Virus record (IMG/VR): IMGVR_UViG_3300037419_003079
DNA length: 64,000 nt
Reading direction: 5' to 3' (one strand)
Origin: a virus
Lineage: Duplodnaviria; Heunggongvirae; Uroviricota; Caudoviricetes
In this document: positions 8,896 to 54,700 of the stretch, in pieces
Layout of the letters: each line of letters opens with the position of its first letter
Position numbering within the stretch: the stretch's first letter is position 1
Made by a program: the position numbers and the translations under genes
The notes under the pieces: generated by a model
Databases searched by the model: none
Seen by the model: only the letters and a program-made list of their open reading frames with translations
What the model was told of the DNA's origin: nothing

Positions 8896-9837
8896 TTACT
8901 TAGTTCCTTTGATTGGTAAGTTGAACAACATATTACCATTGTCACCAATTACTAGGTTCTCAGGTAATTTAATTTTACCTTCTGCTAAACCTTTAGCTAA
9001 TGTTTCTTGAATTTCTAATTGTTTCATCTCTGCTAATGTAGCCATAGCTTGCTTCTTTTTCTGTGCTTGTAGTAATTCAGATTGTGCTTTAGCCTCATTA
9101 GTAGCGTTGGTAATTTTTTGTGCCTCTTGTTCTGCCTTAGCAGTAACTTTTGCTGTTAATGCGTTTTGTACAGCCTCGTCAGAGTAAACTAACTCACCTT
9201 TATAACCAATGTTAGAAATAGTAATACCTTGCTCTTTGAAATACTTAATGACATCTACACTAACTTCATTGATAATGTCAGCCTTGTTAGCACGAATTTC
9301 GTCCATACTACGCTTAGAGAAAGCCTCAATCATTTTCGTTTCTAAACGGTTACGAATTTCATTATCCATGATTTCAGATAAGTGCTTACCTTTGTATGTA
9401 TATAAGAACTTAGGTGTGTCCTCAGGGTGAATAGATGAAGTAGCAGAGATACCTTGTGAGAACTTAATTGAGTCACGAGATTCCGACTTAATAACTTTGT
9501 CTCCAATCCACTCACGAGTCTCAGGGGAACGATTGATTTTTACAACTGAAACAGTGTCAATGTATTTTACTTGCCAGTATCTACGACCTACTTGGATTTC
9601 TTTTTGAGGAATTTGGATTCGCTTACTAGCAACCATGTTCTTCTCTAAGAATTGAACTGAATCGAATTGTTGTTGGTCAGAAGTCTTACCTTCTAACGGT
9701 AATACGAAAGCAGTCTCATTAGCGTCAATAGTGACGAACTTAGGCTTGTTATAAGGCTTAACACAACCTGTTAATGTAGTTGTTAAAGCAATACCTACTA
9801 CTAAAGCACCAATTTTTTTACTTGTTTTCATTTGCAT
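8896..9837 (-). CDS. SPFH/band-7 (stomatin/prohibitin-like) lipoprotein
   Basis: 313 aa. Lipoprotein signal MQMKTSKKIGALVVGIALTTTLTG-C, then an SPFH core, then a coiled-coil tail (AKAEQEAQK ... ELLQAQKKKQA). Confidence 0.75.
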   Translation of the reverse strand: MQMKTSKKIGALVVGIALTTTLTGCVKPYNKPKFVTIDANETAFVLPLEGKTSDQQQFDSVQFLEKNMVASKRIQIPQKEIQVGRRYWQVKYIDTVSVVKINRSPETREWIGDKVIKSESRDSIKFSQGISATSSIHPEDTPKFLYTYKGKHLSEIMDNEIRNRLETKMIEAFSKRSMDEIRANKADIINEVSVDVIKYFKEQGITISNIGYKGELVYSDEAVQNALTAKVTAKAEQEAQKITNATNEAKAQSELLQAQKKKQAMATLAEMKQLEIQETLAKGLAEGKIKLPENLVIGDNGNMLFNLPIKGTK

Positions 9838-10081
9838 TACCTCCGAATAGTTTTTTAATATCTTTTAACATAAACAAGATGAAGATTAAGATTGAGCCAC
9901 TGAATTGAATGGTAGTTCCATATTTAGTTAGGAAGTTATATCCTGCTAAACTAGTGTTGCTATCTTGAAGTTGCATTAAAGCTACTTTGTTGTCTATTGG
10001 TGTTGAAAAAGAATTTAGTACTACATTGAGTAATGTTATAAATACTAATCCTACTACTAATCTAATGATTGTTGATTTCAT
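9818..10081 (-). CDS. small membrane protein (possible NfeD-like partner of the SPFH protein)
   Basis: 87 aa with two TM segments. Overlaps the SPFH gene start by 20 nt. Lies 11 nt downstream of the ClpP-like gene. Confidence 0.5.
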   Translation of the reverse strand: MKSTIIRLVVGLVFITLLNVVLNSFSTPIDNKVALMQLQDSNTSLAGYNFLTKYGTTIQFSGSILIFILFMLKDIKKLFGGNANENK

Positions 10082-10092
10082 TGTTCTCCTCC

Positions 10093-10713
10093 TTATTCAA
10101 TTGCGAAATTTCCTGCTTGAACATCTTCTCTTTTCAGACGAGTAATAGCAATCTTAGATTCTACTACACCTAGCTTAATAGCCTCGTCAGTATCAAAATA
10201 CCAATCTTTGACTGTATCTTGCATATTAGCAATCTCGTCTGCACGAATATTAGTTCTTTCTAAGACAAATTTATTAACCTTGCTTCTCATAAACTTCTCT
10301 ACAGCCTCCATGCGTCTTTGGTGTTCTGTGAAAGTACCACCTTGACCATATGAAATGTCATGGAACATAAACACTGTATGTTCGTATGAATAACGCTTAT
10401 GTCCTGCTAGTAAAATTGGGATACCCATACTAGCTACCATTCCTAATCCAATAGTATGTACTGGTGTCTTACTATTTCTGATGATGTCCATCAATCCTAG
10501 ACCTGATGTTACAGAACCACCGGGAGTATTGATAGTCAAGAAGATAGGGAATTTACTTCTGTCGTGATTGTTATAAGTAGCCTTCTCTTTTGCGTCATCA
10601 ATTCGATTGATTTCTACAATCTTCTCGATAATGGCTTTTGTAGAGGTATTACTAACTTCTTCTGATAAAAATAAGTTACGGTTGATTTCGTTAACTGGAA
10701 CCTGTACTGTCAT
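10093..10713 (-). CDS. ClpP-like serine protease (paralog 2), first gene of the protease / small-membrane-protein / SPFH operon
   Basis: 206 aa. TINTPGGSVTSGLGLMD ... MVASMG (Ser) ... MFHD (His). ClpP/NfeD-N (clan SK) organisation. Confidence 0.8.
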   Translation of the reverse strand: MTVQVPVNEINRNLFLSEEVSNTSTKAIIEKIVEINRIDDAKEKATYNNHDRSKFPIFLTINTPGGSVTSGLGLMDIIRNSKTPVHTIGLGMVASMGIPILLAGHKRYSYEHTVFMFHDISYGQGGTFTEHQRRMEAVEKFMRSKVNKFVLERTNIRADEIANMQDTVKDWYFDTDEAIKLGVVESKIAITRLKREDVQAGNFAIE

Positions 10714-10745
10714 TTCAATTACCTCCTCGTTTATCTTATATTTGT

Positions 10746-10775
10746 ATTATAACTTGCTTGGATACAAAAAGTCAA
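10746..10775 (-). promoter_or_regulatory. sigma-A promoter (TTGACT-18-TATAAT)
   Basis: Reverse complement reads CCTTGACTTTTTGTATCCAAGCAAGTTATAATAC. Confidence 0.7.
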
Positions 10776-10810
10776 GGATAAATCAGAAAACTTTTTTAAT
10801 TTATATCCCT

Positions 10811-10840
10811 AAAAAAAATCGACTAGGAAATGTCCTAGTC
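10811..10840 (-). terminator. rho-independent terminator downstream of the tRNA
   Basis: GACTAGGA-CATTT-CCTAGTC stem followed by U8 on the minus-strand RNA. Confidence 0.75.
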
Positions 10841-10868
10841 TTTAAAATCGTGAAACGTTAAAGGGGTG

Positions 10869-10942
10869 TGGCACGGATTGTAAGAATCGAACTCACATCA
10901 AAGGTTTTGGAGACCTTTGTTTTACCATTAAACTAAATCCGC
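10869..10942 (-). tRNA. tRNA-Trp (anticodon CCA), 74 nt with encoded CCA
   Basis: Hand-folded from the sequence: acceptor GCGGATT/AATCCGT (G1-U72), D arm GTTT-AATGGTA-AAAC, anticodon arm AAGGT-CTCCAAA-ACCTT (U33, C34C35A36, A37), 4-nt variable loop, T arm GTGAG-TTCGATT-CTTAC, discriminator G, CCA. Confidence 0.75.
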
Positions 10943-11463
10943 ATAAGAGGGAGTGCATTAGCACTCTTGGCTCACCAACTGTTTTTATAGAGAAACAGTA
11001 AACGTATTGAGAGAGGTTTTCCGTGCCTCTCCCATTTAATCGGAGGTAGGTTGCGTGGGGAAAATCAACAAAACCCAACGCACGTTTAAGGGTATCGTTT
11101 AAAAGCACGCTTTCCTAGTTATATTATATAGCGAGTGCTAGGTCACTACCTCAGATACCCGTGAGGCAAGCATGTTTATACTCTACACTTCAAGAGATAC
11201 GTTGTAGCGATTCGAGAGGAATGACCATATTGCCGTTTATCTAGGATAAGTCCGTGTAATACAGGCAAACTACCTTGAATCGCATAATTACAGTGCTAGG
11301 CTCATACCAAGAACCAACCTAGCTTGTATTCTCCTCAACTTTTACTTAACTCGTGTCAGGTGTATCGCCTTAGATTAAGTTTTATTGGAGATTACGGTTG
11401 TCCGTTTTCAAACATAGACCTGATACAGGAGGTACGGACGGTAAAGTTTCATGTATTGTGATT
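10943..11463 (-). ncRNA. GC-rich ORF-free structured region upstream of tRNA-Trp (candidate pre-tRNA leader, additional non-canonical tRNAs, or large structured ncRNA)
   Basis: 520 nt with no convincing ORF and clearly higher GC than the flanks. Multiple long stem-loops (e.g. GTCCGT...ACGGAC at 11399-11438, GCGTGGGG...CCCAACGC at 11052-11086, GAGTGC-ATTA-GCACTC at 10951-10966, GGGTATC...GATACCC at 11090-11160). It is co-transcribed between gene 11464..11787 and the terminator at 10811-10840. Confidence 0.4.
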
Positions 11464-11787
11464 TTACTTCTTGTTAAAATAAAGAACAGTTGCATAGTAA
11501 GTAGTTGTTCCGGGAGCGATTGCATATACTTCTTCGCCTTTTTCTAAGTATAATTCGATTTCTCTAGAATTATTTCCTGCATTAATGCTCTCCACTGGAA
11601 TAAGCATTGAATTATTGTTGATGTTCTGTAGTAATTCCGTGTAATTAGGATTTTGGAAGTCGATATTAAGGATTTCTTTTCCTGCAATTCTTACAGGTTG
11701 ATTATCAACGAAGATTTTGACATATCCTCTGTCTCCAACTGCTATAACACTAGGCGTTGCATTTACTGGTTTCACTTCTACTCTCAT
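11464..11787 (-). CDS. hypothetical protein (107 aa)
   Basis: ORF with tandem promoters upstream. Confidence 0.55.
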   Translation of the reverse strand: MRVEVKPVNATPSVIAVGDRGYVKIFVDNQPVRIAGKEILNIDFQNPNYTELLQNINNNSMLIPVESINAGNNSREIELYLEKGEEVYAIAPGTTTYYATVLYFNKK

Positions 11788-11884
11788 TAAACATCTCTCC
11801 TTATTATATCTAATATAAAACGTTGCCCTCTATAAGAGGGATTGGGATATACCCTTACTGATATGTTTTTTATCAGTAATATTA

Positions 11885-11957
11885 TTATGTATTCTTATAT
11901 ATTAAGTTGTCAAGGTATCTTATAAATATATTATAACACAAGACCTTTTAAAAGTCA
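11885..11957 (-). promoter_or_regulatory. tandem sigma-A promoters (TTGACT-17-TATAAT and TTGACA-17-ACATAA)
   Basis: Reverse complement reads CCCTTGACTTTTAAAAGGTCTTGTGTTATAATATATTTATAAGATACCTTGACAACTTAATATATAAGAATACATAAT. Confidence 0.65.
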
Positions 11958-11976
11958 AGGGTTATTACGTTAGAAA

Positions 11977-12300
11977 GGAGGTTTAGCGTTGCCTCCTTCC
12001 ATGATTATTGACATATCATAGTTAGTGTCTGTATTCTATTCCATGATATACACGCCAATGTGGTAGTAACCAACACTTCGATTGGTCTTTGTTGAGAGTA
12101 GAACTATATGGTGAGAGCCTAAACCCTTCATCTCTCTGCACAATGCCCGCTACCGTCACCTTCCATTGTGTTTCCTAGTTCGTAGCTACTGAACTAATCG
12201 CCACACCTTGCGAGTATGACTTCCCTTTCGGGCATAACAGGACTAATCCCCTTCACCTGTCTGTGTCGTCCCCTTTCTATCTTTCCTATGACGACTTTCC
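11977..12300 (-). ncRNA. candidate ~300-nt GC-rich non-coding RNA transcribed from promoter 12314-12342 and ending at hairpin 11977-11996
   Basis: No ORF. GC well above local background. Perfect TTGACT-17-TATAAT promoter directly upstream on the minus strand. GGAGG-N10-CCTCC hairpin at the 3' side. Internal long hairpin TAGTTC-AGTAGCTAC-GAACTA. Confidence 0.35.
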
Positions 12301-12313
12301 TAATTACTATGTA

Positions 12314-12342
12314 ATTATAACATACTTATAATATAAAGTCAA
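12314..12342 (-). promoter_or_regulatory. sigma-A consensus promoter (TTGACT-17-TATAAT) with no ORF downstream for ~300 nt
   Basis: Reverse complement reads CCCTTGACTTTATATTATAAGTATGTTATAATTAC. Confidence 0.7.
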
Positions 12343-12348
12343 GGGTAA

Positions 12349-12633
12349 TTATCTTACGCTCTGACCTGAATGAATTTTTCTAATAGCCTCTAGTGCCTCA
12401 ATATTCTGAGGTTGATTACGCATAATCCAAAGCCTTAATTCATTATATTTTAATGCGAATTTATGTTCTAACTCTCTGTCTAGTTGCTCTTTCCAATAAT
12501 CTGCTACTGCTCTAGTTGTAAAGAAAATGTCGTGCATGGATTTGTCAGATAAATGTATGCTTTCATTTGTTTGAATGTGGTAGGCAATCTTTCTTGCGTC
12601 ATATTCCACTCTAGGGTCATACTTTCTTTTCAT
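12349..12633 (-). CDS. hypothetical protein (94 aa; start refined to ATG with AAGGAGG RBS)
   Basis: The ORF-track ORF was trimmed to the internal ATG at 12633, which has a strong RBS. No recognisable motif. Confidence 0.5.
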   Translation of the reverse strand: MKRKYDPRVEYDARKIAYHIQTNESIHLSDKSMHDIFFTTRAVADYWKEQLDRELEHKFALKYNELRLWIMRNQPQNIEALEAIRKIHSGQSVR

Positions 12634-12646
12634 GCTACATTCCTCC

Positions 12647-13165
12647 TTAGATTTTGTAGTACTTCTTAATGGATTCAATAAGTGAGTCTAAGTCAGGAGA
12701 TATACTACCTCCTGAATCTTTGATAGTTCCAACTACATAAAGGTTACGGTATGGAAATTGATTTTCTACAGCGTCCTGAGACAAAGCATGTAATTTTTTC
12801 ATGTTATCTCTACCTTGTTGGCGAATATCTGTAAATAATGCAAATATAGGTCTAGGTTTAGCACCTGTTCTTAACTGATAGTTAATATCAAAACCTGCAA
12901 ACTTACCAATCTCACATGCAACTCCTGAATCTATCTCAACTCCATCAATAACTGCTATCAAAAATTGAGAGTCTAGTAGATATTCATCGTCTCCTCTTGA
13001 GATAGTTAAACTATTAGCATATCCTGTTTTATCATTTAGTGCCTCGTTTTCTTGTGGAACATATAGTTCTAACTCAGGAAACACCAATCTTAGTTCGTTT
13101 GCTATGATAGTATTATATAGATAGTCTGCCTCACTGAATAGTCCGTTTGCTAGGTACGCCTTCAT
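12647..13165 (-). CDS. nucleoside 2-deoxyribosyltransferase-family protein (NDT/Rcl-like)
   Basis: 172 aa. N-terminus MKAYLANGLFSEADYLYN... with a conserved acidic pocket (DSGVACEIG) characteristic of NDT/DNPH1-like enzymes. Confidence 0.6.
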   Translation of the reverse strand: MKAYLANGLFSEADYLYNTIIANELRLVFPELELYVPQENEALNDKTGYANSLTISRGDDEYLLDSQFLIAVIDGVEIDSGVACEIGKFAGFDINYQLRTGAKPRPIFALFTDIRQQGRDNMKKLHALSQDAVENQFPYRNLYVVGTIKDSGGSISPDLDSLIESIKKYYKI

Positions 13166-13422
13166 TAGTCACTACCTTCTTCTGCTACATCTTCTTTCAC
13201 TACTTCTACATTTTCTTCTAGAACGATTTCTTCTTCTTTGTTTAATCGAAGAATAAATTTATCTTTATTACTCTTGCTATAATCAACTTCAAGTCCTTCT
13301 AAGTAGTTCTTTTCTAGTTGATGATTAGTTATGTGAATTGGTGCTTTGCCATTCTTTGATAGTCGTCTTATACACTCAATCAATAATAAAGTTAAGACTG
13401 CCTCTTTTGATGTTTCAGCCAT
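13165..13422 (-). CDS. hypothetical acidic protein (85 aa)
   Basis: ORF whose start ATGA overlaps the previous gene's stop. Confidence 0.5.
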   Translation of the reverse strand: MAETSKEAVLTLLLIECIRRLSKNGKAPIHITNHQLEKNYLEGLEVDYSKSNKDKFILRLNKEEEIVLEENVEVVKEDVAEEGSD

Positions 13423-13549
13423 TCATACCTTCCTCCATTTCTAAATATCTTTTAAGTTCTGATGGGTTAAATTCTTCTGAGATTCGCTTGTTAATTTCAG
13501 CCATCTCAACGTATCCTTGTGCCATTTGGTCTTTATCTATTTTTTTCAT
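13415..13549 (-). CDS. small hypothetical protein (44 aa)
   Basis: Not in the ORF track. AAGGAGATGG RBS 5 nt before the ATG at 13549. Its TGA overlaps the ATG of the next gene (translational coupling). Confidence 0.4.
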   Translation of the reverse strand: MKKIDKDQMAQGYVEMAEINKRISEEFNPSELKRYLEMEEGMNG

Positions 13550-38638: not shown

Positions 38639-38730
38639 GAAGGTAAAGGGTAGGGTTAGGTTTTCAGGTGAACTATACCCTTCCCTATTTTTTATATAAA
38701 CGTACAAATTTTAAGAAGGAGGTTAAAGAG

Positions 38731-41700
38731 ATGGCAGGAAAAGACTTTAAGTATATTATTAATACCGAGTTAAAGTTAAATACAGGCTCTCTAAAAAAAT
38801 TATTAGAAGATGTAAAAGATGTAGATACTTCCATACGCAACCATTTCAATAAAACTGGTAAAGGTGGTATCAAACTACCTATCAGTATTGATAAAGGTGC
38901 TAGTTTAAATAACTTACAATCAGAAGTAAAGGCAGTAATTACCAACTTCAACAGAAGTCAAGCACCTAAGATTAAAATCAAAATGGAACTTGATAATAAA
39001 AGTGCTGAGGCTTTAAAGCAACAAGTAGACAATGTTAAGCACCATCTTAACAATATTAATAATAGCAAAGAAAATGTAAATATTAAGACCTCTCTTAAAG
39101 TTGACAAGGGCGAAAAAGAAAAAGTACAGAAACAAGTTGGCGACATCAAAGCAACTATGACTGTGGGATTAAAAATAGACCAAAACGATTTAAGAGTTGT
39201 TAAAGGTCAAATAGAATCTTTAAGACAAGAAGTTGTAAACACTAGTAGAACTAGAACAACTAGAAACGGTGAGGTAGTAGGCAGTTTCCGTGACCATGTT
39301 AACGATAGAACTGCGTCAGTTGGCTCTAGAAGTACAGCAGACAAAGACTTACTTAATGCTAAGGCTCAGGCTCAGGCAGAGAAGGATATGGCAAGTGCTA
39401 GAAGGCAAAATGCTCAAGCACAAAAAACTGAATTACAAGTTGAACAGGCTATCACAAAAGAAAAGGAAAAGCAAGCTAAGTTAGACAGAGAAAATACAAA
39501 CCTTTTCAAAATGAGAGACCAATCAACTAGAAGATTGACTAAGGCACAAGATACTCTAACTCAACTAGAGTCAAAGGCTAACGGTTCTAATTGGAGAACA
39601 CTATCTACTAATGACCAAAAAGCATTATCAGGTCAACTAGACACATATAGAAAAAAGGTAGAAAAGTTCCAAAGAGAAAGAGATAAGATTGACAATGCAA
39701 TCTTAAACCAATTACCTAACAACTATTACAATCGTAAGCCATTAGTTGACCCTATGAACGCAACTAGAGGCAGAGTTGTAATGAATACCAACTCTAATGT
39801 TCAAGCACAGATTCAATCACAAATAAAGGCTCAGAGACTAGCTGAACAACAAGCACAAAAGGAAATAGAAAGAGCACATAAGCAAGCTGACGCTCTAAAT
39901 AGAAAGTATGACCAAGACCGTGCTAGACAACAACAACAAGCTAGGAGAGACGCTGAGTGGAATGGTGCTGTACATAGATACGGTGGCAACAGACAAAAAA
40001 CCATTCTTGATGATGAAATGGTTTTAAGAAATCCTGACGCTAGTAAGAATGACAAGTTAGAGGCTCTTGAAAGATTAAAGCAAAATGCAGGTGGATTAGC
40101 TAGGGAAATGAATCAAAACCTAACTCGTTCATTTGAAGTATTTAATCGTAATGCTGATGGAACCATCTCTAGAACTAGAACCGCACAGTATGAGTTCACT
40201 AGATTCGGAGACGCTGTTGACCGTTCTAACAAGTTTATGAGTACTCTTAGAAACACTATGCAATATGCAGGTATTACGACTGCTTTCATGGCTATGGGTC
40301 AAGGTATTCAAATAGCTGTTCAAAGTATGATTGATTTTGAGGCTCAAATGTCTCGTATTCAATTGCTAACTACAGACCTAAGAGATGGTGGTCTAAACCA
40401 AGCATACTCAGGTTTCGGATATAGTAAAAATAACATAAAGCATAATACTCGCAGAGATGTATCAAATCTTTCTCAAAAATACGGAATGTCTGCTACTGAC
40501 ACTGTAATGCCAGTTTATCAACAAGTTATGGCTAGAAGTGAGCTGATTAAAGGTAATGGAGATAAGCCTAGCCCTGTGTTGGCAAATAAGATTACAGACC
40601 AAATCTTAAAATATAGTGCAATTACATTAGGACCTAATGCAGGTGCAGATGATGTTAATCGTATATCTCAAGATATGTTATCTCTATATCAAGGGCTATA
40701 CAAAGGAAAAGGTCAACAACATGTATACGACATGGATAGATTCGTAGACTTCATGACTCTAATGAATGGTAGTGGTGTCAACACTAACAACATTATGGAC
40801 GCTATGAGTGAAGTTGCTCCTGACGCTATTAAGAAAGGTATAGACCCTAGGAGAGTAGCAGGTATGCTAGGTGCTTACAATTTATCTGATAGTGATTCAA
40901 GTGGCTCTAATATGACAACAGTTGCTAAAACATTCTTCGGTGGATTAGCTAGATATAAAGATAGTGAGTCTATCCAATCAGGTCTGAAAACACTAGGCAT
41001 TGATACAACTCAAAACTATTCTCAAGAAGAATTATTAGACTTAGTTGTTAAGAATTACAAAGGTTTGAGTGATACACAAAAAGAATCTGTATCTAGAGAC
41101 TTGTCATCTGTTAATGGTAAAGGTATATCGCAAGCACCTAAGATTCAAAAGTTCTTAGACGCTAGTGGTTCTGAATATGCTGAAACATTCAAAAAGAATA
41201 TGACTAGCACTGGATTAGCTGACAATGCACTTGATACTTATCTAAAAACTGCTAAAGTTCAGTTCGGTCAATTAAAGCAAGAATTGACTGAGACGGTTGA
41301 ACTATTAGCTGAACTAGGTGCTTTAGATGGTCTTAAAGCATTGCTTGGTGGATTCAAAGTTGCTGTTCAAACAGTAAATGGTTTCCTAGATATAATTGTT
41401 AGACTAGGTGACGCTAGTGAGAAAATATTTGGATTCAATATTCCTAAATATGTGACACAAATTTTAGCATTAGCAGGTGCATTTAAATTAGTAACTGCTA
41501 CGATGAAAAAGTTTCAACTTGGAACTGGATTGCTTCAAGGTGGTAGTTCATTAATAGGTGCTCTTACTCAAGGAGAAATGATTACTCGTGCCTCTTTCAA
41601 CGGAAGAACTCAAAGGAAAGTTAATGTAGAAGTTCCTCATACTGGAAAAGGTTCAGGCGTAGGAAATGTTATCGGTCAGGCAGTAGGTTGGGTACTTATG

Positions 41701-44700
41701 GGAGGCAATCCTTTCAAAAGAGGTGCTAATGTTGCTAAAGCAGGTGAAGTTGGAGGCAATGTAGCAACAAACTTATTCTCTAAACTAGGAACTTCTTTAA
41801 AAGGATTACTTCCAATACTAGGTAGGTTTGCAGGAATCTTGCTTAGATTAAGTGCTATAGGTGCTGTCATAGGAACTGCTGTTTGGGTAGGTAAGAAACT
41901 ATGGGACATGAATCAAAAGCATGAGGCTAATGTAAGGAAAGGCGAGTTCAAAAACTTCAACAAGGTATATGGTGGTGGAGAAGAAGACAAAGAGAAATTA
42001 GCTAAGGACTTAAATACTTGGAAAGACTGGAATGACAAAAACAAAACTGTAATAGTTTCTAGAAATGGCTCATTCCACGGAAACCCAATGCCTTCGAGCG
42101 AACCACCTAAGAAAAATAAAATGCCCAAGGAGATTGAAAAACTTCAAAAACAATTCTCTGAAATGGGAATTACTTACTCAACTGTCGCAGGATTAAACGG
42201 TAACAACACTAGTACTATAGCGTACAATGCCGAAGGAAAAGATGGCAAGATATATAAACAACATTTTAATGCCGATGACAAAGGCGGTTGGAAGGATATG
42301 ATTGACACTTTAGGTGCTAAGGGCTTAGATAAAGACGCTCAAATAGCAGAGAAGTGGAAAATCGCTAACAACGAGGCAATTAAATATCAAACAGAATTAG
42401 GTATAATTAATGACTTAACTGAGAAGTTCAATAGAACTATGAACAGACTAGGTTACGATATGTCTAAAATTGACTTTAACTTTATGGGTGCTGAAAACTC
42501 GTCAAGTGCTAGCATTGCTAAGATTAACCTTATCAATGGTGCTATGTCTGATTTAAGTGGAACTATTACTGAGTTAACTGACAAAGGTAACCACTTTAAA
42601 GAGCAAGCAGGAATTTATGACACTAAAATTACTGGTCAAAGAAACAAGATTATAAAAGGAGGTTTAATGTCTAAGGCAGAAATGGACGACTTAGACCAAA
42701 CTTATAAACTTGCCTATGATTCAGGAAACGCAGACACTATCACTAACCAGTATGAAGTAACAGATAAAACTAGAGACAAACTTAAAAAAGCAGGTATGAG
42801 TAAGAAAGATATAGAAAAAGAACTTGCTAAGAGATATGCAGTTAGTGAATATCTGTCATACAAACAATCTAATGCAGGATTTGTAGACGCAGACAAAGAA
42901 ACAGAGGCTCAAATTCTACAAACTAATATGGCTATACTTGAGAGACAACAAGCATTGAAACAGTTAACTGCTCAATTACTAGTGTCTCAATCTCAGATTG
43001 ATGTATTCAATGCTAAGATTAGTGCTATACAGTTTGGTACTGGTAAAGCCAAAACTCTACTTGATTTATCGAATACAGACGAAGAAAAAATCAAGAGAAG
43101 TGGAGACCTACTAAAATCTCAATCTACTGAGTTATCTGCATACAGAGCACAATTAAATTCTGTCTACGCTCAAATGAGTAGAATTAAGGCTCAAAATGGA
43201 GGTCAAGATTTCTCAATCGACACACTATATAATCCGGGAGAGAACGGACTATCAGCAGAGCAAAATGCTTACAAGCAACTACTAGAACAACAATATAGTA
43301 TTCATGACAATATTAACTCTACAACAGTTGCTATGAAGGAACAAGCAGACCAAGTTAAAGAAATGGTGCTTAATTCTGATAAGTATGCTGATGTGTGGGA
43401 AAGAGTTCAAAACCGTATTCAACTAGTAAAAGACCTAAACAACGAGATTGCTAGCATTAAAACTGACCTATCATTAGTTAACAATTTCTCTAATATAAGA
43501 AGTGCTGTTACAGGAGGCTCTTATATTCAAGATAGAAATAGTAGATTAGAAGGTATCCGTGATAGAGGATTAGATGGATACGAGAAAATCATGACTTCTC
43601 TTAAAACTTATGCAGGAGACGAACAGAAACTTGTTGAGGCATATGATGAAATCAATAAGTCTATGGGTGGAGAATTTGACAATGCGTTCATTCAACCACT
43701 TAAAGACTTAATACAAAATGATTTCACTAAAGCAGGAAACCTTATTAGTGATGGTGCAGGTAAACTAGACCAAGTACTAACATATTGGGCAAACAATATA
43801 ACTAGTGGACTTCTAACTCAACAGTCTCAAAATTTCCAATCTGATTTAGCAGGAACAACTGGAACTGGTGGTTCAGTAATTCCGGGATTCACTGGTGGTA
43901 TCAATACTAAAAATGCTACTGACGCTGAAAAACTAGACGCTTATATTACTCAGCAATTCGGGTATAAAAAAGGAACTAGAGAGTTTAACTCTATGAAGAA
44001 ACAAATGCAAGCTAGTATGACTCCTGCTGAAATCAAAAAAGAAGTTAATAGAGGAACTATTTCGGTTGGTAATAATAAGGCAGTTGCAGATTACACTGAA
44101 AAAATAAATTCTTATTTTAGCAAAACTGGAAGAACTAAACTTCAAGGAACTGGAAATATGTTCGTTCAAGCAGGTGCTAAATATGGTATTGACCCAATGT
44201 TCTTAGCGTCTATCGCAGTTCAAGAAACTGGTGGTAAATCAGGAGTAATCAATGGTGCTTATAATGTTGGTAACATCAAAGGTACTGGTAAAGCTAATGC
44301 TGAGTGGAACGGTACTAAGTGGGTTAATCCGGGAGACGGACTAACATATAGAAAATACGGTTCTCTACAATTAGGTATTAATGACTTAGCTAGGTTACTA
44401 AAAGATGTATATATCAGCCAAGGATATGATACTATTCCTAAAATTAACAGCAAGTATGCAGAAGACCCTAACTGGAAATACGGTGTAGCTAGTATCTACT
44501 CTAGTATGTCAGGTACATCTAAAGAGTCATTGCTAGGTGGAACAACTATGTCTGCATTAGGTGGTGGTGGAGGTACATCAGTATCATCATCTTACGGAAC
44601 TATTAGAAAAGGTTCTAAAGGAGCGTCAGTTAAAGAACTTCAAAAAGCATTAGGGGTTAATGCTGACGGTATCTTCGGTTCTGCAACTGAAAAAGCTGTT

Positions 44701-47700
44701 AAAAGCTATCAAAAGAGTCATGGGCTAACTGCTGACGGTATTGTAGGTTCTAAAACTTGGAGTTCATTAGGTATAGGTGGAGGTTCATCTTCTTCAAGTA
44801 CATCAGGTGTTGGAAAAGGTGGAATGGCAGTACTTAATAGTCTAGTTAATAAATCTGCTTCTCAAGGAGGTCTAGGATATTCTTGGGGTGGAGGTCATGA
44901 TAAAGGAGATTGGGATTCATTTATCAAAAAAGCTAAAGCTGACTGCTCAGGACTTGTTCAACATTTCTATAGAGAATTTGCAGGAGTAGAATTAGGAACT
45001 GGTTCGTCTAATAGCATGTGGCAAAATAGCCAAGGTAAAAGGATTACAAATAAAGCAGACCTACAAGTTGGTGATGTAGTCTATTTTGGTAGTGGAGGCA
45101 AAGTAACTCACACTGGTATCTATGCAGGAAACGGTCAATACATTGGTATGAACAGTGGAGGTCCTAATAAGAGTGGAGCACCACTTAAAAAGGACGCATT
45201 ACGAAGCGACTTTGTTGGAGGCAAAAGATATGACGGTGCTAATGCTAGATTAACATCAGGAGGCAGTGTTGCAGGTGCTCTAGGTGCAGATGTGCCAACA
45301 GTAGCACAGATGATTAAAACTGCTTTTGGAATGTTTAAAGAGGCAATCGAGGCTGAAATGGCTATAAACAATGTTGCAACAATTAAAGAGTCATACAATA
45401 AAGACAAGACATTGGGTTATGGTCATGGTAATATCCGTGATGTACTAGGTACAACTGGTAGATTAGGTGCTTATGATAGAAACTATCAAGCTAGAGAAGA
45501 AATCTATGACGCTAAGTACGGTAATGTAGAGCAAATGAAAGCACTTTCTAAAACTCGTGCTCAATATGTTAAGGACGCTAATAGTGCATTGAAGGCAGGT
45601 AAAACTGACGAATATAATGCGAATAAAGAGGCTGTATCTTCTATTGACAAACTTATTGCTACTTTAAAAGAAAACAATAAGAAATTAGACGAGTGGGATA
45701 AAGAGTTAGTAAAAGCACTTCAAGGAGACCCTAGATATAATGCTAGTAATGCAGGTTACTACATAAAAGGTGGGTACAATAAGTTAGCTACTATGCAAGA
45801 CGGAACTACTGATTACTATCGTACAGTTGAAGAACTTAATGGTATGAATAATCAGTACATGACGACTAAGAAACGATTATCAGTAATGGGTGAATTTTGG
45901 AATACAACAGGTCTTGAAACTGGTCACTACAATGCAGTAAAGAGAAAGTCAGACCAAGAGGACATCAATGTTGCGTTTGTTAAACTGAAAGAAATTCAAA
46001 AGGTTTTAAATTCATTCGCTCAAGGAACTCAGAATTGGTACTCTACTCTTGAAGATGTAGTTGCAGTATATCAAGAACTTCGTGAACTTGATGAAAAGAG
46101 ACTTGAAAATGCTAAGGCATACTTTGAGATGACTGGTCAAGGTGCTCAAACATATATTAATCAACAAGCATACCTGAATAGCAAAAGTTACTCTGAAAAC
46201 AGAAGAAACCTTAATGTTGCTAAACAAACCCTTACTAATGACAAACTGAAAAGAGCGTCAGGTGCTAAAGGTATGGACGAAAATCAACAACTGGCTACAC
46301 TACAAATTATAGCAGGTTTGCAAGACGCTTTAATTAGTCAAATGAATGAGTATCGTCAAGCTGTTATTGGTGCTTTTAAAGCAGGTGCTATGTCTATTCA
46401 AGAGTACATAGATAGAATGTCTGACCTTCGTGATGTGCAAAATGAACAGAAAGAAAATGCTCTTAAAATGATTGATTCTATCTCTCAAGGTTTTGAGCAA
46501 TCCCTGTCAAATGCACTAGCAAGTGGATTCATGGGCAACATGGATTCTACTCAAGGTTTCATAGATGGTATCAAGCAGACATTAGCAACAACTATAGCTT
46601 CTCAACTATCAGCTACGCTACTTAATAACACTGGTCTACAGAAAGTTATTAATGACTTAATCACTTCGGTAACTACTGCGGCTACAACTGGAAACCCTGA
46701 TGATATTGCTAATATGTTTAACAATAACAACTTCGGAGACCAAATTAATAACGCACTAGCACCGTTCCTACCTTTAATCGAACAAATTGTTGCCTCAACA
46801 GATGGTATATTCTCTATCATGAAAGACCAACTGTTTAATGCACCACAAGGATTCAAAATTGACCAATACTTATATGACCAAGCTAAAGGTAAGAGTTTTG
46901 AAGGTGTTAAGAACTGGCAACAAAATGGTGAAACTAATGAGGCAGGTTCTCCTATTGGAGGAGTTGGAAGTAATACTCCTATAGTTACACCACCGGGAAC
47001 AACACCGGGAGGAGTTCCGGGAGGTACATCTAAACCACCAACAGGGACACCGGGTTCAACTGGTGGAACACCTAACACTGGTAAGGGTGGAGCAGGAGCA
47101 CCTGATAGTGGAAGTGCTGTTAAGAATCCTACAACTGACAACTCTAAGGTTAATACACCTCCTAAATCTTCGGGTGGCAAAGGTTCATCAGGCTCAGGTC
47201 ATAATCATGGGACTGTTAACAAAGGAGATAGAGGTGAGGCTGTTAAGGAAATCCAAAGGGCTGTAGGAGTTAAGGCAGACGGTATCTTTGGTTCTGATAC
47301 TGAAAGAGCTGTTAAGGCTTACCAAAAGAAACACGGACTTAAAGCAGATGGTGTAGTTGGTAAGGACACTTGGGCTGTTATTCATAAGGGTAACGGTGGA
47401 AGTAGTTCGGGTAGCAAAGGTAATTCTAATTCAGGTAGCAAAGGAACTACTAAGACTACTAAGCAAGCACTTAATTTCCGTAGTAGTCCGGGAGGAAAGG
47501 TAATGAGTGTATTACCTAAAGGTGCTAAGGTAAATTACCTAGGAATGGAAAAAGGTTGGGCGAAAGTAAGCTACAAAGGTAAGACAGGTTATGTTGGTAA
47601 AGATTATATTTATCATACTGGTGGTATCGCAGGAATGATGAATTTTGCTAATGGTCAACAACTTAAAGCGAATGAGATTCAAGCTATTATGCAAAAAGGT

Positions 47701-47937
47701 GAGATAGCATTACAACCTAAGCAATTAGCAACTTTACTTGGTAACACAGTACCTAAAGCAACTGCTGAGGGCAACGGTGCAGGAATCAATATCAATGTCA
47801 ATGTAACTGTTGAAGGTGGAGATTATGACCAAAAAGGAATCGAAAAAGTTGTCGAAACATCTGTTGAAAAAGCTATGACTGAGTTCAAGCGTCAACAAAG
47901 ATTAGGTAACTTATCATGGAAAGGAACTTCCTACTAA
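38731..47937 (+). CDS. tape measure protein with lytic transglycosylase, 2x PG-binding, NlpC/P60 and SH3b domains
   Basis: Start refined to the ATG at 38731 (AAGGAGG RBS); 3,068 aa. SLT-like GIDPMFLASIAVQETGG. PG_binding_1 twice (KELQKALGVNADGIFGSATEKAVKSYQ and VKEIQRAVGVKADGIFGSDTERAVKAYQ). NlpC/P60 Cys-His (ADCSGLVQHF ... VTHTGIYAG). C-terminal SH3b-like domain. Confidence 0.9.
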   Translation: MAGKDFKYIINTELKLNTGSLKKLLEDVKDVDTSIRNHFNKTGKGGIKLPISIDKGASLNNLQSEVKAVITNFNRSQAPKIKIKMELDNKSAEALKQQVDNVKHHLNNINNSKENVNIKTSLKVDKGEKEKVQKQVGDIKATMTVGLKIDQNDLRVVKGQIESLRQEVVNTSRTRTTRNGEVVGSFRDHVNDRTASVGSRSTADKDLLNAKAQAQAEKDMASARRQNAQAQKTELQVEQAITKEKEKQAKLDRENTNLFKMRDQSTRRLTKAQDTLTQLESKANGSNWRTLSTNDQKALSGQLDTYRKKVEKFQRERDKIDNAILNQLPNNYYNRKPLVDPMNATRGRVVMNTNSNVQAQIQSQIKAQRLAEQQAQKEIERAHKQADALNRKYDQDRARQQQQARRDAEWNGAVHRYGGNRQKTILDDEMVLRNPDASKNDKLEALERLKQNAGGLAREMNQNLTRSFEVFNRNADGTISRTRTAQYEFTRFGDAVDRSNKFMSTLRNTMQYAGITTAFMAMGQGIQIAVQSMIDFEAQMSRIQLLTTDLRDGGLNQAYSGFGYSKNNIKHNTRRDVSNLSQKYGMSATDTVMPVYQQVMARSELIKGNGDKPSPVLANKITDQILKYSAITLGPNAGADDVNRISQDMLSLYQGLYKGKGQQHVYDMDRFVDFMTLMNGSGVNTNNIMDAMSEVAPDAIKKGIDPRRVAGMLGAYNLSDSDSSGSNMTTVAKTFFGGLARYKDSESIQSGLKTLGIDTTQNYSQEELLDLVVKNYKGLSDTQKESVSRDLSSVNGKGISQAPKIQKFLDASGSEYAETFKKNMTSTGLADNALDTYLKTAKVQFGQLKQELTETVELLAELGALDGLKALLGGFKVAVQTVNGFLDIIVRLGDASEKIFGFNIPKYVTQILALAGAFKLVTATMKKFQLGTGLLQGGSSLIGALTQGEMITRASFNGRTQRKVNVEVPHTGKGSGVGNVIGQAVGWVLMGGNPFKRGANVAKAGEVGGNVATNLFSKLGTSLKGLLPILGRFAGILLRLSAIGAVIGTAVWVGKKLWDMNQKHEANVRKGEFKNFNKVYGGGEEDKEKLAKDLNTWKDWNDKNKTVIVSRNGSFHGNPMPSSEPPKKNKMPKEIEKLQKQFSEMGITYSTVAGLNGNNTSTIAYNAEGKDGKIYKQHFNADDKGGWKDMIDTLGAKGLDKDAQIAEKWKIANNEAIKYQTELGIINDLTEKFNRTMNRLGYDMSKIDFNFMGAENSSSASIAKINLINGAMSDLSGTITELTDKGNHFKEQAGIYDTKITGQRNKIIKGGLMSKAEMDDLDQTYKLAYDSGNADTITNQYEVTDKTRDKLKKAGMSKKDIEKELAKRYAVSEYLSYKQSNAGFVDADKETEAQILQTNMAILERQQALKQLTAQLLVSQSQIDVFNAKISAIQFGTGKAKTLLDLSNTDEEKIKRSGDLLKSQSTELSAYRAQLNSVYAQMSRIKAQNGGQDFSIDTLYNPGENGLSAEQNAYKQLLEQQYSIHDNINSTTVAMKEQADQVKEMVLNSDKYADVWERVQNRIQLVKDLNNEIASIKTDLSLVNNFSNIRSAVTGGSYIQDRNSRLEGIRDRGLDGYEKIMTSLKTYAGDEQKLVEAYDEINKSMGGEFDNAFIQPLKDLIQNDFTKAGNLISDGAGKLDQVLTYWANNITSGLLTQQSQNFQSDLAGTTGTGGSVIPGFTGGINTKNATDAEKLDAYITQQFGYKKGTREFNSMKKQMQASMTPAEIKKEVNRGTISVGNNKAVADYTEKINSYFSKTGRTKLQGTGNMFVQAGAKYGIDPMFLASIAVQETGGKSGVINGAYNVGNIKGTGKANAEWNGTKWVNPGDGLTYRKYGSLQLGINDLARLLKDVYISQGYDTIPKINSKYAEDPNWKYGVASIYSSMSGTSKESLLGGTTMSALGGGGGTSVSSSYGTIRKGSKGASVKELQKALGVNADGIFGSATEKAVKSYQKSHGLTADGIVGSKTWSSLGIGGGSSSSSTSGVGKGGMAVLNSLVNKSASQGGLGYSWGGGHDKGDWDSFIKKAKADCSGLVQHFYREFAGVELGTGSSNSMWQNSQGKRITNKADLQVGDVVYFGSGGKVTHTGIYAGNGQYIGMNSGGPNKSGAPLKKDALRSDFVGGKRYDGANARLTSGGSVAGALGADVPTVAQMIKTAFGMFKEAIEAEMAINNVATIKESYNKDKTLGYGHGNIRDVLGTTGRLGAYDRNYQAREEIYDAKYGNVEQMKALSKTRAQYVKDANSALKAGKTDEYNANKEAVSSIDKLIATLKENNKKLDEWDKELVKALQGDPRYNASNAGYYIKGGYNKLATMQDGTTDYYRTVEELNGMNNQYMTTKKRLSVMGEFWNTTGLETGHYNAVKRKSDQEDINVAFVKLKEIQKVLNSFAQGTQNWYSTLEDVVAVYQELRELDEKRLENAKAYFEMTGQGAQTYINQQAYLNSKSYSENRRNLNVAKQTLTNDKLKRASGAKGMDENQQLATLQIIAGLQDALISQMNEYRQAVIGAFKAGAMSIQEYIDRMSDLRDVQNEQKENALKMIDSISQGFEQSLSNALASGFMGNMDSTQGFIDGIKQTLATTIASQLSATLLNNTGLQKVINDLITSVTTAATTGNPDDIANMFNNNNFGDQINNALAPFLPLIEQIVASTDGIFSIMKDQLFNAPQGFKIDQYLYDQAKGKSFEGVKNWQQNGETNEAGSPIGGVGSNTPIVTPPGTTPGGVPGGTSKPPTGTPGSTGGTPNTGKGGAGAPDSGSAVKNPTTDNSKVNTPPKSSGGKGSSGSGHNHGTVNKGDRGEAVKEIQRAVGVKADGIFGSDTERAVKAYQKKHGLKADGVVGKDTWAVIHKGNGGSSSGSKGNSNSGSKGTTKTTKQALNFRSSPGGKVMSVLPKGAKVNYLGMEKGWAKVSYKGKTGYVGKDYIYHTGGIAGMMNFANGQQLKANEIQAIMQKGEIALQPKQLATLLGNTVPKATAEGNGAGININVNVTVEGGDYDQKGIEKVVETSVEKAMTEFKRQQRLGNLSWKGTSY

Positions 47938-51754: not shown

Positions 51755-54700
51755 ATGAGTAAGTTTAACAACAGATACTTAAAATATTCAACAAACACAA
51801 ATGACACCTACGCTGATTACGGTGAAGTAGTAAGTGTAATTAGTGACAAAATAGTTAATCTAGATATGGGTGGAACAGGGTACATTCTAGAGGCTGTTAA
51901 CTGTGATAATTCATATATACCTAAATTAGGTGATTGGGCTACTGTTGAATGGAGAAATGGTCAGCCATTAGCAAAAGGTGGAACTAGCATGTCTACAGGA
52001 CTGCGAGACATCAATGATAATGTTACTATTATTTCTACAAGTGACATAGCTAGTGGTGTAGTCAACTCAGACCACATCAGAACAAATACGATAGAGGCTA
52101 GACACATTACTGCTGAATCTATTCAAGCAAACCACATTTCAGCAAACTCTATTAATGCAAACCACATTACTGCTAACGCTATTACTACTGTTCAGTTGTC
52201 TGCTAATAGTATCACGACTGACAAGATACAAGCAGGTGCGATTCAAGCACAGAATATTCAAGCAGGAGCAATAGGTGCAACGCAAATTAGTGCTAACTCC
52301 ATTAACGCAACGCATATCACAGCAAACGCTATTCAAACTCAACATATTTCAGCAAACGCTATTCAAGCAGGACAAATAAGTGCTAACGCTATCCAAACTC
52401 AACATATCTCGGCAAACACTATTACTGCTAGTCAGATTAAAGTTGACGCTATCAATGCTAGCCATATTTCTGCTAACTCCATAACTTCTAGTGAGATTTC
52501 TGCGAACGCAATCCAATCAGTTCACATTAGTTCTAATGCTATCAATTCAAACCATATTAATGCAGGAACTATTAATTCAGGTCATATTAGTGCAAATGCA
52601 ATTCAATCACAACATATTTCAGCAAACAGTATTGACGCTAGCCATATTAAAGCAGGGGTAATTAATGCTACACTAATCTCTGCTAACGCTGTTCAAGCAC
52701 AACACATTTCAGCAGGAAGTATTACATCTACACATATCAGTGCTAATGCAATACAATCTCAACATATCAGTGCAAACAGTATTCAAACTAATCACATCTC
52801 TGCTAACTCAATAACTGCTAGTAAGATTAGTTCAGATTCAATCTTTGGATACCATATTGTTGCTAATAATATTACTGCAAGTCATATTACTGCAAATGCG
52901 ATTCAAGCACAACATATATCTGCAAATAGTGTTCAATCTGCTCATATTAGTGCAGGCTCTATTAATGCAGGTCATATCGTTTCAAATGCGATTCAATCAA
53001 ATCACATTTCTGCTAATTCAATTCAAGCAAGTCATATAACAGCGAATGCAATCCAAACGCAACACATTTCAGCTAATACGATTGTTGGTAGTCAAATTAA
53101 AGCTGATACGATTAGTGGTAATCATATCACTGCTAACACTATCCAAGGTAAGCATATTCAAGCTGACACAATTAGTGGAAACCACATTACTGCAAATAGT
53201 ATTGATACTAAGCATGTTAAGGCAGGAAGTATTACTGCTACACAAATTTCTGCTAACTCTATTACTTCTAGTCACATCTCTGCTAATAGCGTTCAGTCTC
53301 AGCATATCTCGGCTAACTCAATTCAGTCAAGTCATATCTCAGCTAACTCTATTAATGCAGGTCATATTATCGCTAACTCAATTCAATCTAGTCATATTAG
53401 TGCAAATTCTATTCAATCAGGACACATTTCTGCTAACTCTATTCAGACTCAACATATTAGTGCAAATACAATCACTGGTGGAATGATTAAATCTAATGAG
53501 ATTTCAGGTAATCACATTCAAGCAGGAAGTGTAGACACAGACCATTTGACGGTGGGAAGTAGAAAAGAAGGATTGCTAGGACAATACTTTACATATAACT
53601 CTGCAAGTGGAAATAGTAAATTCCAAGTTTACAAGGGTAGTCAAATAGACCCTACTATTAACTTCTCATGGGGAACAGGTTCTCCTGCTATTGTAGGTCA
53701 GAATGATAGTTTCTCAGTAAGATGGCAAGGATTCATCTATGCACCTGAGACAGGGACTTACTCATTCCATTTAACTGCTGATGATTTAGGAAAAGTAGTT
53801 GTCAATAACACTGTTGTTGTAAATCAACTTTCTTATTCAGGTGGGGTAGAGCAAACAGGGACTATTTCTCTTACACAAGGAAACTGGTATCCTTTCTTAG
53901 CAGAAATGACAGAAGGTACTAGTGGAGCAATGGCAATAGTAAAATGGACAAAACCATCTCTAGTAAAAGAAGTTGTTCCTTCTAAATATTATACACAAGG
54001 TAACACTGTAATTGATGGTCAAACTATTACTACTGGAAGTATTACTGCCTCTGCAATTCAAGCAGGTACAATTACTGCTCAATCAGGTATTCTAGCAAAT
54101 GCAGTTATTCAAACAGCTAATATTGCTGACGGTGCAATTACAAATGCCAAGATTGGTAACGCTGAAATCAAAACTGCTAATATAGCAAGTGGTAATATCA
54201 CTAACGCATTGATTCAAGACGCTACTATCCAATATGCTAAAATAGCAAGTGTAAACGCTGATACAATTACAGTTGGCAAAATAACTGGTACTCAAATTAG
54301 TGGTAGCACTATCGAAGGTCAGAATATCAAAGGTAATACAATATCAGGTAATCACATCGTAGCTAACTCCATTGATTCGCTACATATCAAGGCAGGTGCT
54401 ATTACTACTACAGAACTTTCTGCACAATCTATTACATCAGATAAAATTCAAGCAGGTTCAATTACTGCTGATTCTATTCGAGTTGGTAGTATTAGAGCAG
54501 AACATATTTCTACTGTAGGCTTAGACGCTAACATCGTTTCTGTTTACAATCCAACTACAGGTCAAACATTAATCGGTGGAGGATATTTAAGAGTAGACGG
54601 TTTAGATGTAGGGGTAGTACAATCGGATAACCTAGTTGGTAACGGATTATTCTTAACAGCCTCGTCTGCATTTGGTTCTAAGAGAGATAATCCTTATGGT

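Follow-up and report, generated by a model that had tools for sequence, protein, structure and literature searches.

ROOL and GOLLD are structured noncoding RNAs (ncRNAs) of Firmicutes phages and prophages, which are often encoded beside transfer RNA (tRNA) genes, measure ~500-800 nucleotides (nt) and are represented, like HEARO, by models in Rfam 15. We compared these and other RNAs of phage tRNA loci to a conserved pseudoknotted RNA motif located upstream of tRNA-Trp in the Caudoviricetes record IMGVR_UViG_3300037419_003079 from IMG/VR. Positions refer to the 64,000-nt stretch of this record that was analysed, hereafter the window. In contrast to ROOL and GOLLD, the conserved unit of our motif is only 150 nt long (11443-11294, minus strand). 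We searched Rfam with the whole window at gathering scores and with four sub-regions (three from the window, one from phage Moonbeam) at E ≤ 10. ROOL, GOLLD and HEARO were matched neither at gathering scores in the 64-kb window nor at E ≤ 10 in 10700-11600 or 11280-11460. Intron, transfer-messenger RNA (tmRNA), riboswitch (including T-box) and ribozyme models gave no match at E ≤ 10 in 10700-11600 or in the motif alone. The motif is without an Rfam 15 match at both thresholds.

RNAC and RNAD are small RNAs encoded in the tRNA region of bacteriophage T4, and neither has an assigned role (PMC3014915); they have been detected by Northern blot (PMC9697503). Like them, our motif is a non-tRNA RNA of roughly 100-150 nt situated within, and co-oriented with, a phage tRNA cluster. 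This position, inside the cluster and on the tRNA strand, is found in all eight loci of the motif; the RNAC/RNAD type is a functional kind rather than a sequence family, in which a discrete small RNA accumulates during infection, and the motif is a candidate for it. There is no sequence relationship between the two, as a blastn search with the motif returned three Bacillus megaterium phages only from 50,697 phage records, and T4 is a coliphage, whereas the motif is carried by Bacillaceae phages. To our knowledge, no fold with kissing loops and a possible loop-closed three-way junction, as outlined below, has been described for RNAC or RNAD. The non-tRNA RNAs of phage tRNA clusters have been unexplained for decades, and the motif adds a second well-defined example.

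Theta ribozymes, which resemble the hepatitis delta virus (HDV) ribozyme, adjoin phage tRNAs and are presumed to be linked to tRNA precursor processing (PMC10879173). They share with the motif that a pseudoknotted element is embedded in phage tRNA loci. Theta ribozymes have a minimal HDV-like fold, whereas the motif is larger, has another helix order and usually lies just upstream of a tRNA; catalysis by the motif would be hypothetical. HDV-like RNAs are defined by a nested double pseudoknot, P1-P2-P3-P3'-P1'-P4-P4'-P2'. The order in our motif (UACC, P1, P2, P2', P1', AACC, P3, P4, P4', P3', P5, GGUU, GGUA, P5') cannot be mapped onto it, and HDV-type Rfam models gave no match in 10700-11600 or in the motif alone (E ≤ 10).

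A conserved pseudoknotted RNA in phage tRNA arrays

The motif forms the 5' 150 nt of an open reading frame (ORF)-free segment between tRNA-Trp and the preceding coding sequence (CDS). A blastn search with 10700-12400 against the phage collection identified matches in unannotated DNA of Mater, Moonbeam and Eldridge, B. megaterium myophages belonging to three Herelleviridae genera. Apart from tRNA-to-tRNA matches, the similarity is limited to window positions 11451-11301. Together with the metagenomic sequences L006, L020, L030 (identical to L031) and L055, the family comprises eight distinct copies. Pattern-scan matches in IMG/VR, JGI metagenomes and GTDB were checked by nhmmer and a covariance model. 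An invariant 16-mer occurs at 23 IMG/VR loci, but the motif itself at only four, namely L006, L020 and the records of Moonbeam and Mater in IMG/VR; the other matches are due to chance, as expected at this length. Composite patterns, three for viral contigs and one each for GTDB genomes and JGI metagenomes, added only L030/L031 and L055. In nhmmer searches, family copies reach E values between 1e-33 and 1e-44; the eight distinct sequences score 129-176 bits with a covariance model built from these same eight sequences, the window copy being the highest (175.7 bits).

No copy was found on a bacterial chromosome in the GTDB scan, where exact patterns can miss divergent copies, and none in a plasmid collection. 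When four different family members were used as blastn queries, the phage collection again returned Mater, Moonbeam and Eldridge only. We found no description of the motif in the literature on its invariant sequences or on these three phages, and a paper on Bastillevirinae introns reports introns in protein-coding genes only. All eight copies contain stop codons in each of the three sense frames and differ by insertions or deletions of 1-9 nt, and we thus conclude that the motif is noncoding. Together these findings define a candidate for a new RNA family among the non-tRNA small RNAs of phage tRNA clusters. The family is rare, with eight copies found, and it represents a solid new candidate rather than a breakthrough.

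The three isolates that carry the motif all infect B. megaterium, and the RNA is directly testable in these culturable phages. The window phage is distant from them: it shares ~30% terminase identity with B. megaterium siphophages, a close relative at the DNA level is lacking, and IMG/VR searches with its 107-amino acid (aa) and ClpP-like proteins revealed no close relative. The presence of the motif in at least one distantly related phage lineage points to selection or to horizontal spread as a module. Separately, window positions 9185-9228, inside a lipoprotein-like CDS (8896-9837), match gp65 of jumbo phage G, which infects B. megaterium, with 93% identity over 44 nt (megablast); it is the sole near-identity match between the first 25 kb and known phages.

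We derived a secondary structure from a model-based alignment of the eight sequences, in which invariant single-stranded blocks alternate with compensatorily varying helices. Its elements in the window copy are as follows:

11443-11294, minus strand: conserved pseudoknotted RNA motif, 150 nt (blastn, nhmmer, covariance model, covariation)
11439-11434 / 11405-11400, minus strand: helix P1, GUCCGU with ACGGAC, stacked on P2; 100% of alignment cells paired, double changes in 2 of 6 pairs
11433-11430 / 11421-11418, minus strand: helix P2, ACCU with AGGU; 100% of cells paired, double changes in 2 of 4 pairs
11429-11422, minus strand: loop L2, CCUGUAUC
within 11400-11439, minus strand: conserved joining strand J2/1, CUAUGUUUGAAA
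11395-11326, minus strand: P3 domain with P3a (GUA/UAC), P3b (UCUCC/GGAGA) and inner P3c; encloses P4
11370-11368 / 11360-11358, minus strand: helix P4, AGG with CCU; double changes in 1 of 3 pairs, closing pair A-U, U-A or G-C
11367-11361, minus strand: loop L4, CGAUACA, inside the P4 hairpin
11427-11422 / 11366-11361, minus strand: kissing-loop pseudoknot, L2 UGUAUC with L4 GAUACA; 6 bp, 97.9% of cells paired
11323-11318 / 11300-11295, minus strand: P5 hairpin, GCUAGG with CCUAGC; double changes in 6 of 7 pairs
11317-11301, minus strand: loop L5, 17 nt, UUGGUUCUUGGUAUGAG; invariant except for single substitutions in L030 and L055

Along the RNA, a UACC strand is followed by the P1/P2 hairpin, an AACC strand, the P3 domain with the enclosed P4 hairpin, and the P5 hairpin. 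The P3 domain also holds a conserved GACAnGA strand, and six of eight aligned P3 pairs show changes on both sides. Inner helix P3c forms in every sequence when folded alone; its alignment registers differ between sequences, and it was thus left out of the covariation count. In the kissing loop, both sides have changed in four of six pairs, with Moonbeam and L055 using UGCCAG/CUGGCA instead. Counting pseudoknots, 42 pairs have 94.6% of their cells paired; in controls with pairing partners shifted by 1-3 alignment columns, the value falls to 31-37%. Both-side changes occur in 21 of the 42 pairs, and none of 500 shuffles attained the observed covariation score, the structure having been derived from the same eight sequences. 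A single-sequence minimum free energy (MFE) fold also yields P1 to P5. G-U pairs at several positions are compatible only with the tRNA strand, and we thus assign the RNA to this strand. As concluded from the comparative data, 11443-11294 encodes a conserved, compact pseudoknotted RNA.

Loop L5 has the family consensus UUGGUUYUUGGUAUGAG, whose GGUU and GGUA are complementary to the AACC (11399-11396) and UACC (11443-11440) strands flanking P1. UACC is invariant among the copies and AACC nearly so, with L020 having UACC instead. All eight junction pairs (UACC/GGUA, AACC/GGUU) are complementary and seven of them never vary; in L020, an A58-to-U change breaks one pair, with no compensation. The order of GGUU and GGUA within L5 fits a three-way junction. 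We therefore put forward, as a hypothesis, that L5 docks onto the ACC-containing strands flanking P1 and closes a three-way-junction pseudoknot; the near-invariant positions involved give no covariation.

Genomic context and possible roles of the RNA

In Mater, Moonbeam and Eldridge, the tRNA cluster that contains the motif is located upstream of the portal gene, and tRNA-Asn follows the motif closely. Across the family, a tRNA begins 7-8 nt past the motif in five of eight loci (Asn in four, Gly in one). Where there is an upstream tRNA, it is 39-445 nt away, and some loci have none. In the window, neither a U-tract nor a ribosome binding site (RBS) follows P5, and an expression platform is thus absent. 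The L030/L031 contigs come from relatives of the window phage and share with it the motif (87% identity), the tRNA-Trp region, promoter sequences and two small ORFs. The L030 array runs Met, a tRNA detected by Rfam only, Thr, motif, Pro, an HNH-type ORF, Met, Gly, Arg, Ser and Gly, and ends with tRNA-like elements, an ORF and Trp. Five canonical tRNAs, tRNA-like elements and the HNH-type ORF thus separate the motif in L030 from the homologs of window positions 11284-11223 and of the tRNA-Trp region, indicating that the motif and the downstream pieces are separate modules.

Two further regions were noted in or near these arrays. A noncoding element of ~100 nt is common to L003:2397-2491 (plus strand) and L030:2585-2668 (minus strand; equal to L031:655-738). 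It consists of a 32- and a 24-nt block, 94-96% identical, which flank a variable middle (GGAGrUCGUGCUCCUkAUAAUUAACCUGAUA ... GUUGGCAGGCAACGwUAAAACACG), and it directly precedes the motif in Eldridge, directly follows it in L030/L031 and is absent from the window. In each of the three isolates, Mater, Moonbeam and Eldridge, an unannotated AT-rich region of ~1 kb precedes the tRNA cluster (L001:1552-2500, L002:1343-2300 and L003:1219-2500, respectively). It contains repeated TTGACAtATTTTAATCC promoter-like units with TTGACA elements, and the Moonbeam region, the only one checked, has no ORF of ≥50 aa. By tblastx, it is 80-90% conserved between Moonbeam and the metagenomic L055, and a shorter stretch is also present in Eldridge. 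We considered a large structured RNA here, which is not obvious given the AT-rich sequence and the repeated promoter-like elements.

We considered how the motif may function in such arrays. There is in our view about an even chance that the 150-nt RNA is a small stable RNA which is excised from a tRNA precursor and acts in trans, with T4 RNAC and RNAD as its closest precedent. It would be released from the polycistronic precursor as a discrete RNA, whose 3' end would be defined by RNase P cleavage at the 5' end of the tRNA that usually lies 7-8 nt downstream and whose 5' end would result from exonuclease trimming or tRNA 3'-processing. In infected hosts of the Bacillus/Priestia type, the RNA may then act in trans, the most plausible mode being that it binds a protein or a tRNA-related factor; processing, stability and trans action are the parts that we infer. 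Several observations weigh against this proposal. The next tRNA is 63-351 nt away in three of eight loci, so RNase P cannot always set a 3' end near P5. No partner gene or protein conserved across the loci was found, and the folding energy of the motif is unremarkable (z = -0.94). Some of the eight sequences are close to one another (Moonbeam and L055, the window and L030), and the shuffle statistics thus overstate their independence. Finally, ~58 positions are invariant and many of them unpaired, which would equally fit the core of a ribozyme or a ligand-binding RNA. The motif could alternatively be a cis-acting element of the tRNA precursor that serves the following tRNA and has no function of its own after cleavage, be it as a 5' roadblock against 5'-to-3' decay (by RNase J1 in Bacillus), as a module for folding or for presentation to RNase P, or as a processing sensor. 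The spacing of 7-8 nt in five of eight loci and the constant co-orientation with tRNAs speak for such a role. RNase P and T-box RNAs use GGU/NCCA contacts, which the invariant GGU loop and the ACC strands of our motif may recall. We nevertheless consider a cis role unlikely, because the downstream tRNA varies by locus (Asn, Gly, Pro or none) and the window motif is intact, at 87% identity to L030, beside what appears to be a decayed tRNA, which together indicate that the motif is selected independently of its neighbor. In addition, no alternative terminator/anti-terminator follows P5, and the T-box and all riboswitch models were without a match.

The invariant unpaired nucleotides (J2/1 GAAA, GACAnGA and L5) in a compact, multi-pseudoknotted fold would also suit a previously undescribed catalytic RNA, self-cleaving or of another kind, that helps to cut the polycistronic tRNA precursor, in a role like that of theta ribozymes. 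The location inside tRNA arrays is compatible with this, since ribozymes beside phage tRNAs have precedent (PMC10879173). We regard this explanation as quite improbable: no known ribozyme model matches, the helix order is incompatible with the nested double pseudoknot of HDV-like RNAs, the motif does not directly follow a tRNA as theta ribozymes do, the upstream tRNA being 39-445 nt away or absent, and RNase P alone would account for processing at the downstream tRNA. A broader and tentative proposal, which we likewise hold to be unlikely, is that the motif represents a new functional RNA class of phage tRNA arrays, either a self-cleaving or processing ribozyme or a decoy that binds or mimics tRNA. 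As a decoy, it could use its GGU-rich invariant loop and ACC strands to interact with the 3' ends of tRNAs, with RNase P or with a tRNA-targeting nuclease of host defense. Phage tRNA clusters are increasingly viewed as a means of translation takeover and of escape from tRNA-targeting defenses, and a ribozyme or decoy, if confirmed, would add an RNA component to this role. The sequence-only reading had instead suggested that the ~520 nt upstream of tRNA-Trp could be a single large ornate RNA resembling ROOL or GOLLD, or could hold overlooked non-canonical tRNAs. The segment is indeed GC-rich, ORF-free and tRNA-adjacent, has MFE z-scores of about -1.8 to -2.1 and includes a remnant the size of a tRNA, with an acceptor-like stem. 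That reading correctly anticipated a structured ncRNA beside the tRNA, yet a large one, or hidden tRNAs, are very hard to reconcile with our data. HEARO, group I/II introns and tmRNA, whose models that reading had listed for checking, were as little matched as ROOL and GOLLD at either threshold. A conserved structured unit of ~500-800 nt was not found: conservation and covariation end at 11294 and comprise 150 of 521 nt, and L030 splits the modules apart. Unrelated sequence in homologous phages, which would have counted against the sequence-only reading, is seen over most of 10943-11206 but not over 11443-11294, which is conserved and shows covariation. ARAGORN added no hidden tRNA to tRNA-Trp at relaxed 85% thresholds (-ps85), also with -i (intron mode) and -m, and detected no tmRNA, leaving one decayed tRNA-like remnant.

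The rest of the segment and its transcription unit

The RNA motif is flanked by the following features:

11958-11930, minus strand: sigma-70-like promoter match 1, TTGACT-17-TATAAT with TG; 11 of 12 consensus positions (scan)
11913-11884, minus strand: sigma-70-like promoter match 2, TTGACA-18-CATAAT; 11 of 12 consensus positions (scan)
11464-11787, minus strand: CDS of 107 aa (ORF list) with a good RBS, AAGGAGAG; stop codon 20 nt upstream of the motif
11283-11207, minus strand: apparently decayed tRNA-like element, 77 nt, with a perfect 7-bp acceptor-like stem (GCGAUUC/GAAUCGC) and no T arm
11206-10943, minus strand: hairpin-rich spacer and putative pre-tRNA-Trp leader, ~260 nt, non-conserved; MFE z = -2.07 (3' 348 nt)
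10869-10942, minus strand: tRNA-Trp, anticodon CCA (ARAGORN; Rfam RF00005, 69.3 bits, gathering score 29)
10840-10813, minus strand: intrinsic terminator, 8-bp stem with 4 G-C pairs, GACTAGGACATTTCCTAGTC, then GATTTTTTTT (terminator scan)

The tRNA-Trp cloverleaf, which had been folded by hand, was recovered by ARAGORN at the same coordinates. It has C32-U33-CCA-A37-A38, a UUCGAUU T-loop, the discriminator G73 and an encoded CCA end. It is the sole ARAGORN tRNA in the 64-kb window, and RF00005 is the only Rfam family there at or above its gathering score. The U8 terminator reported after the tRNA was likewise retrieved: 28 nt past tRNA-Trp, a G+C-containing hairpin is directly followed by a run of eight U (given as GAUUUUUUUU), and this is the single terminator match in 10000-13500. 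The segment between tRNA-Trp and the preceding CDS (10943-11463, 521 nt) is, as had been noted, more GC-rich than its surroundings, with 41.5% GC, whereas the window has 35.8% and the five CDSs closest to the segment have 34.5-36.4%; this corresponds to the 98.6th percentile among 521-nt windows. It contains only chance ORFs of 30-71 aa, including the GTG ORF 10893-11108, which overlaps the tRNA and had rightly been dismissed. The description of the segment as packed with long perfect stems is only weakly borne out by thermodynamics, with MFE z-scores of -1.83 over its full length, -2.07 over its 3' 348 nt and -0.94 over the motif alone. The evidence for structure comes from the comparative data and not from folding energy.

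The 107-aa CDS has no PHROG match and no homolog beside the motif at other loci, and it is thus not a conserved partner of the RNA. Our scans found no promoter-like site or terminator between its stop codon (11464) and the motif start (11443). We infer from this a single transcription unit, with both promoters being consensus matches: the CDS, the RNA motif and tRNA-Trp are probably made as one transcript from the 11958/11913 promoters to the terminator at 10840-10813.

The tRNA-like remnant starts 11 nt past P5, close to where a tRNA begins in five of the seven other loci (7-8 nt). Window positions 11284-11223 are 80.6% identical over 62 nt to L030:1259-1201, and this L030 counterpart retains a canonical GGTTCGATTCC T arm. 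Relaxed ARAGORN reports a paralog of this counterpart in L030 as tRNA-??? with a 4-nt anticodon, and makes no call for 11283-11207, nor does the Rfam tRNA model at E ≤ 10. The best reading of 11283-11207 is a dead tRNA-like gene, next to which the motif has been kept intact, and that of the last ~260 nt a lineage-specific tRNA-Trp leader. In L030, we noted three tRNA-like elements on the minus strand (1175-1259, 1345-1430 and 1437-1514) with acceptor stems and canonical T arms, whose anticodon arms are abnormal in having loops or 'anticodons' of 4 nt. None of them is called by ARAGORN or Rfam by default, and two appear as tRNA-??? at relaxed thresholds. The window remnant belongs to this group.

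The spacer (10943-11206) has no blastn match in the phage collection, and only short tRNA-proximal pieces (ACCUCCG..GGGAGA and CUCCCUCUUAU) align to L030. AAACGT recurs in L030 and was considered as a processing signal; it was rejected, as it is not enriched in the window. Weak Rfam matches to wcaG, snoRNAs, STnc430 and sR11 were inconsistent between family members and were dropped. Among them, wcaG RNA (RF01761) covers its full model length at 10964-11053 (minus strand), directly upstream of tRNA-Trp, with a sub-threshold 27.8 bits (gathering score 42; E = 0.0056 in a 901-nt search). Several single-stranded stretches of the wcaG consensus are common to 10964-11053; the resemblance falls in the non-conserved spacer and not in the 150-nt motif. 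It is probably due to chance, because the score is below threshold, the middle hairpin is marked as non-pairing, and the match is absent from the corresponding L030 leader. Overall, the segment looks like a phage tRNA array that has contracted, retaining the motif and tRNA-Trp while its other parts decayed.

A second ncRNA candidate and other features of the window

The next ORF-free stretch upstream (~12310-11965, minus strand) may represent a second ncRNA of ~330 nt with 44% GC. A near-consensus extended -10 promoter (TTGACT-17-TGtTATAAT) is located at 12342-12314, and the 3' end has a hairpin, GGAAGGAGG..CCUCCUUUC, followed by UUCUAACGUA. A full-length, syntenic homolog with a like promoter is present at L031:4289-3973 (identical to L066:975-659; nhmmer E = 1.2e-6). 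The two share conserved, purine-rich blocks, including AAUUAGGAAA, GGAAGAUAG, CAGGUGAA, GUUCUACUCUCAA and AACUAUGAUA. In this comparison of two distinct sequences only, stems vary in a compensatory manner (GUCGUC/GACGAC versus CUGUC/GGCAG; ACAGG/CCUGU versus GCAGG/CCUGC). Rfam gave no match at E ≤ 10, and blastn none in the phage collection. The strings GGAAAGUC and ACAGA raised RNase P RNA as a candidate, which we rejected because GGAAAGUCGUC pairs locally with GACGAC rather than over a long range, and no RNase P model matches at E ≤ 10. If both RNAs are confirmed, the motif and its ~330-nt neighbor would form a small island of new phage ncRNAs.

Elsewhere in the window, two very large ORFs on the plus strand, 38668-47937 (3089 aa) and 51755-60307 (2850 aa), lie in the structural gene block. 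The GC content of the window peaks at ~46% around ~46860-47520, inside the 3089-aa ORF.

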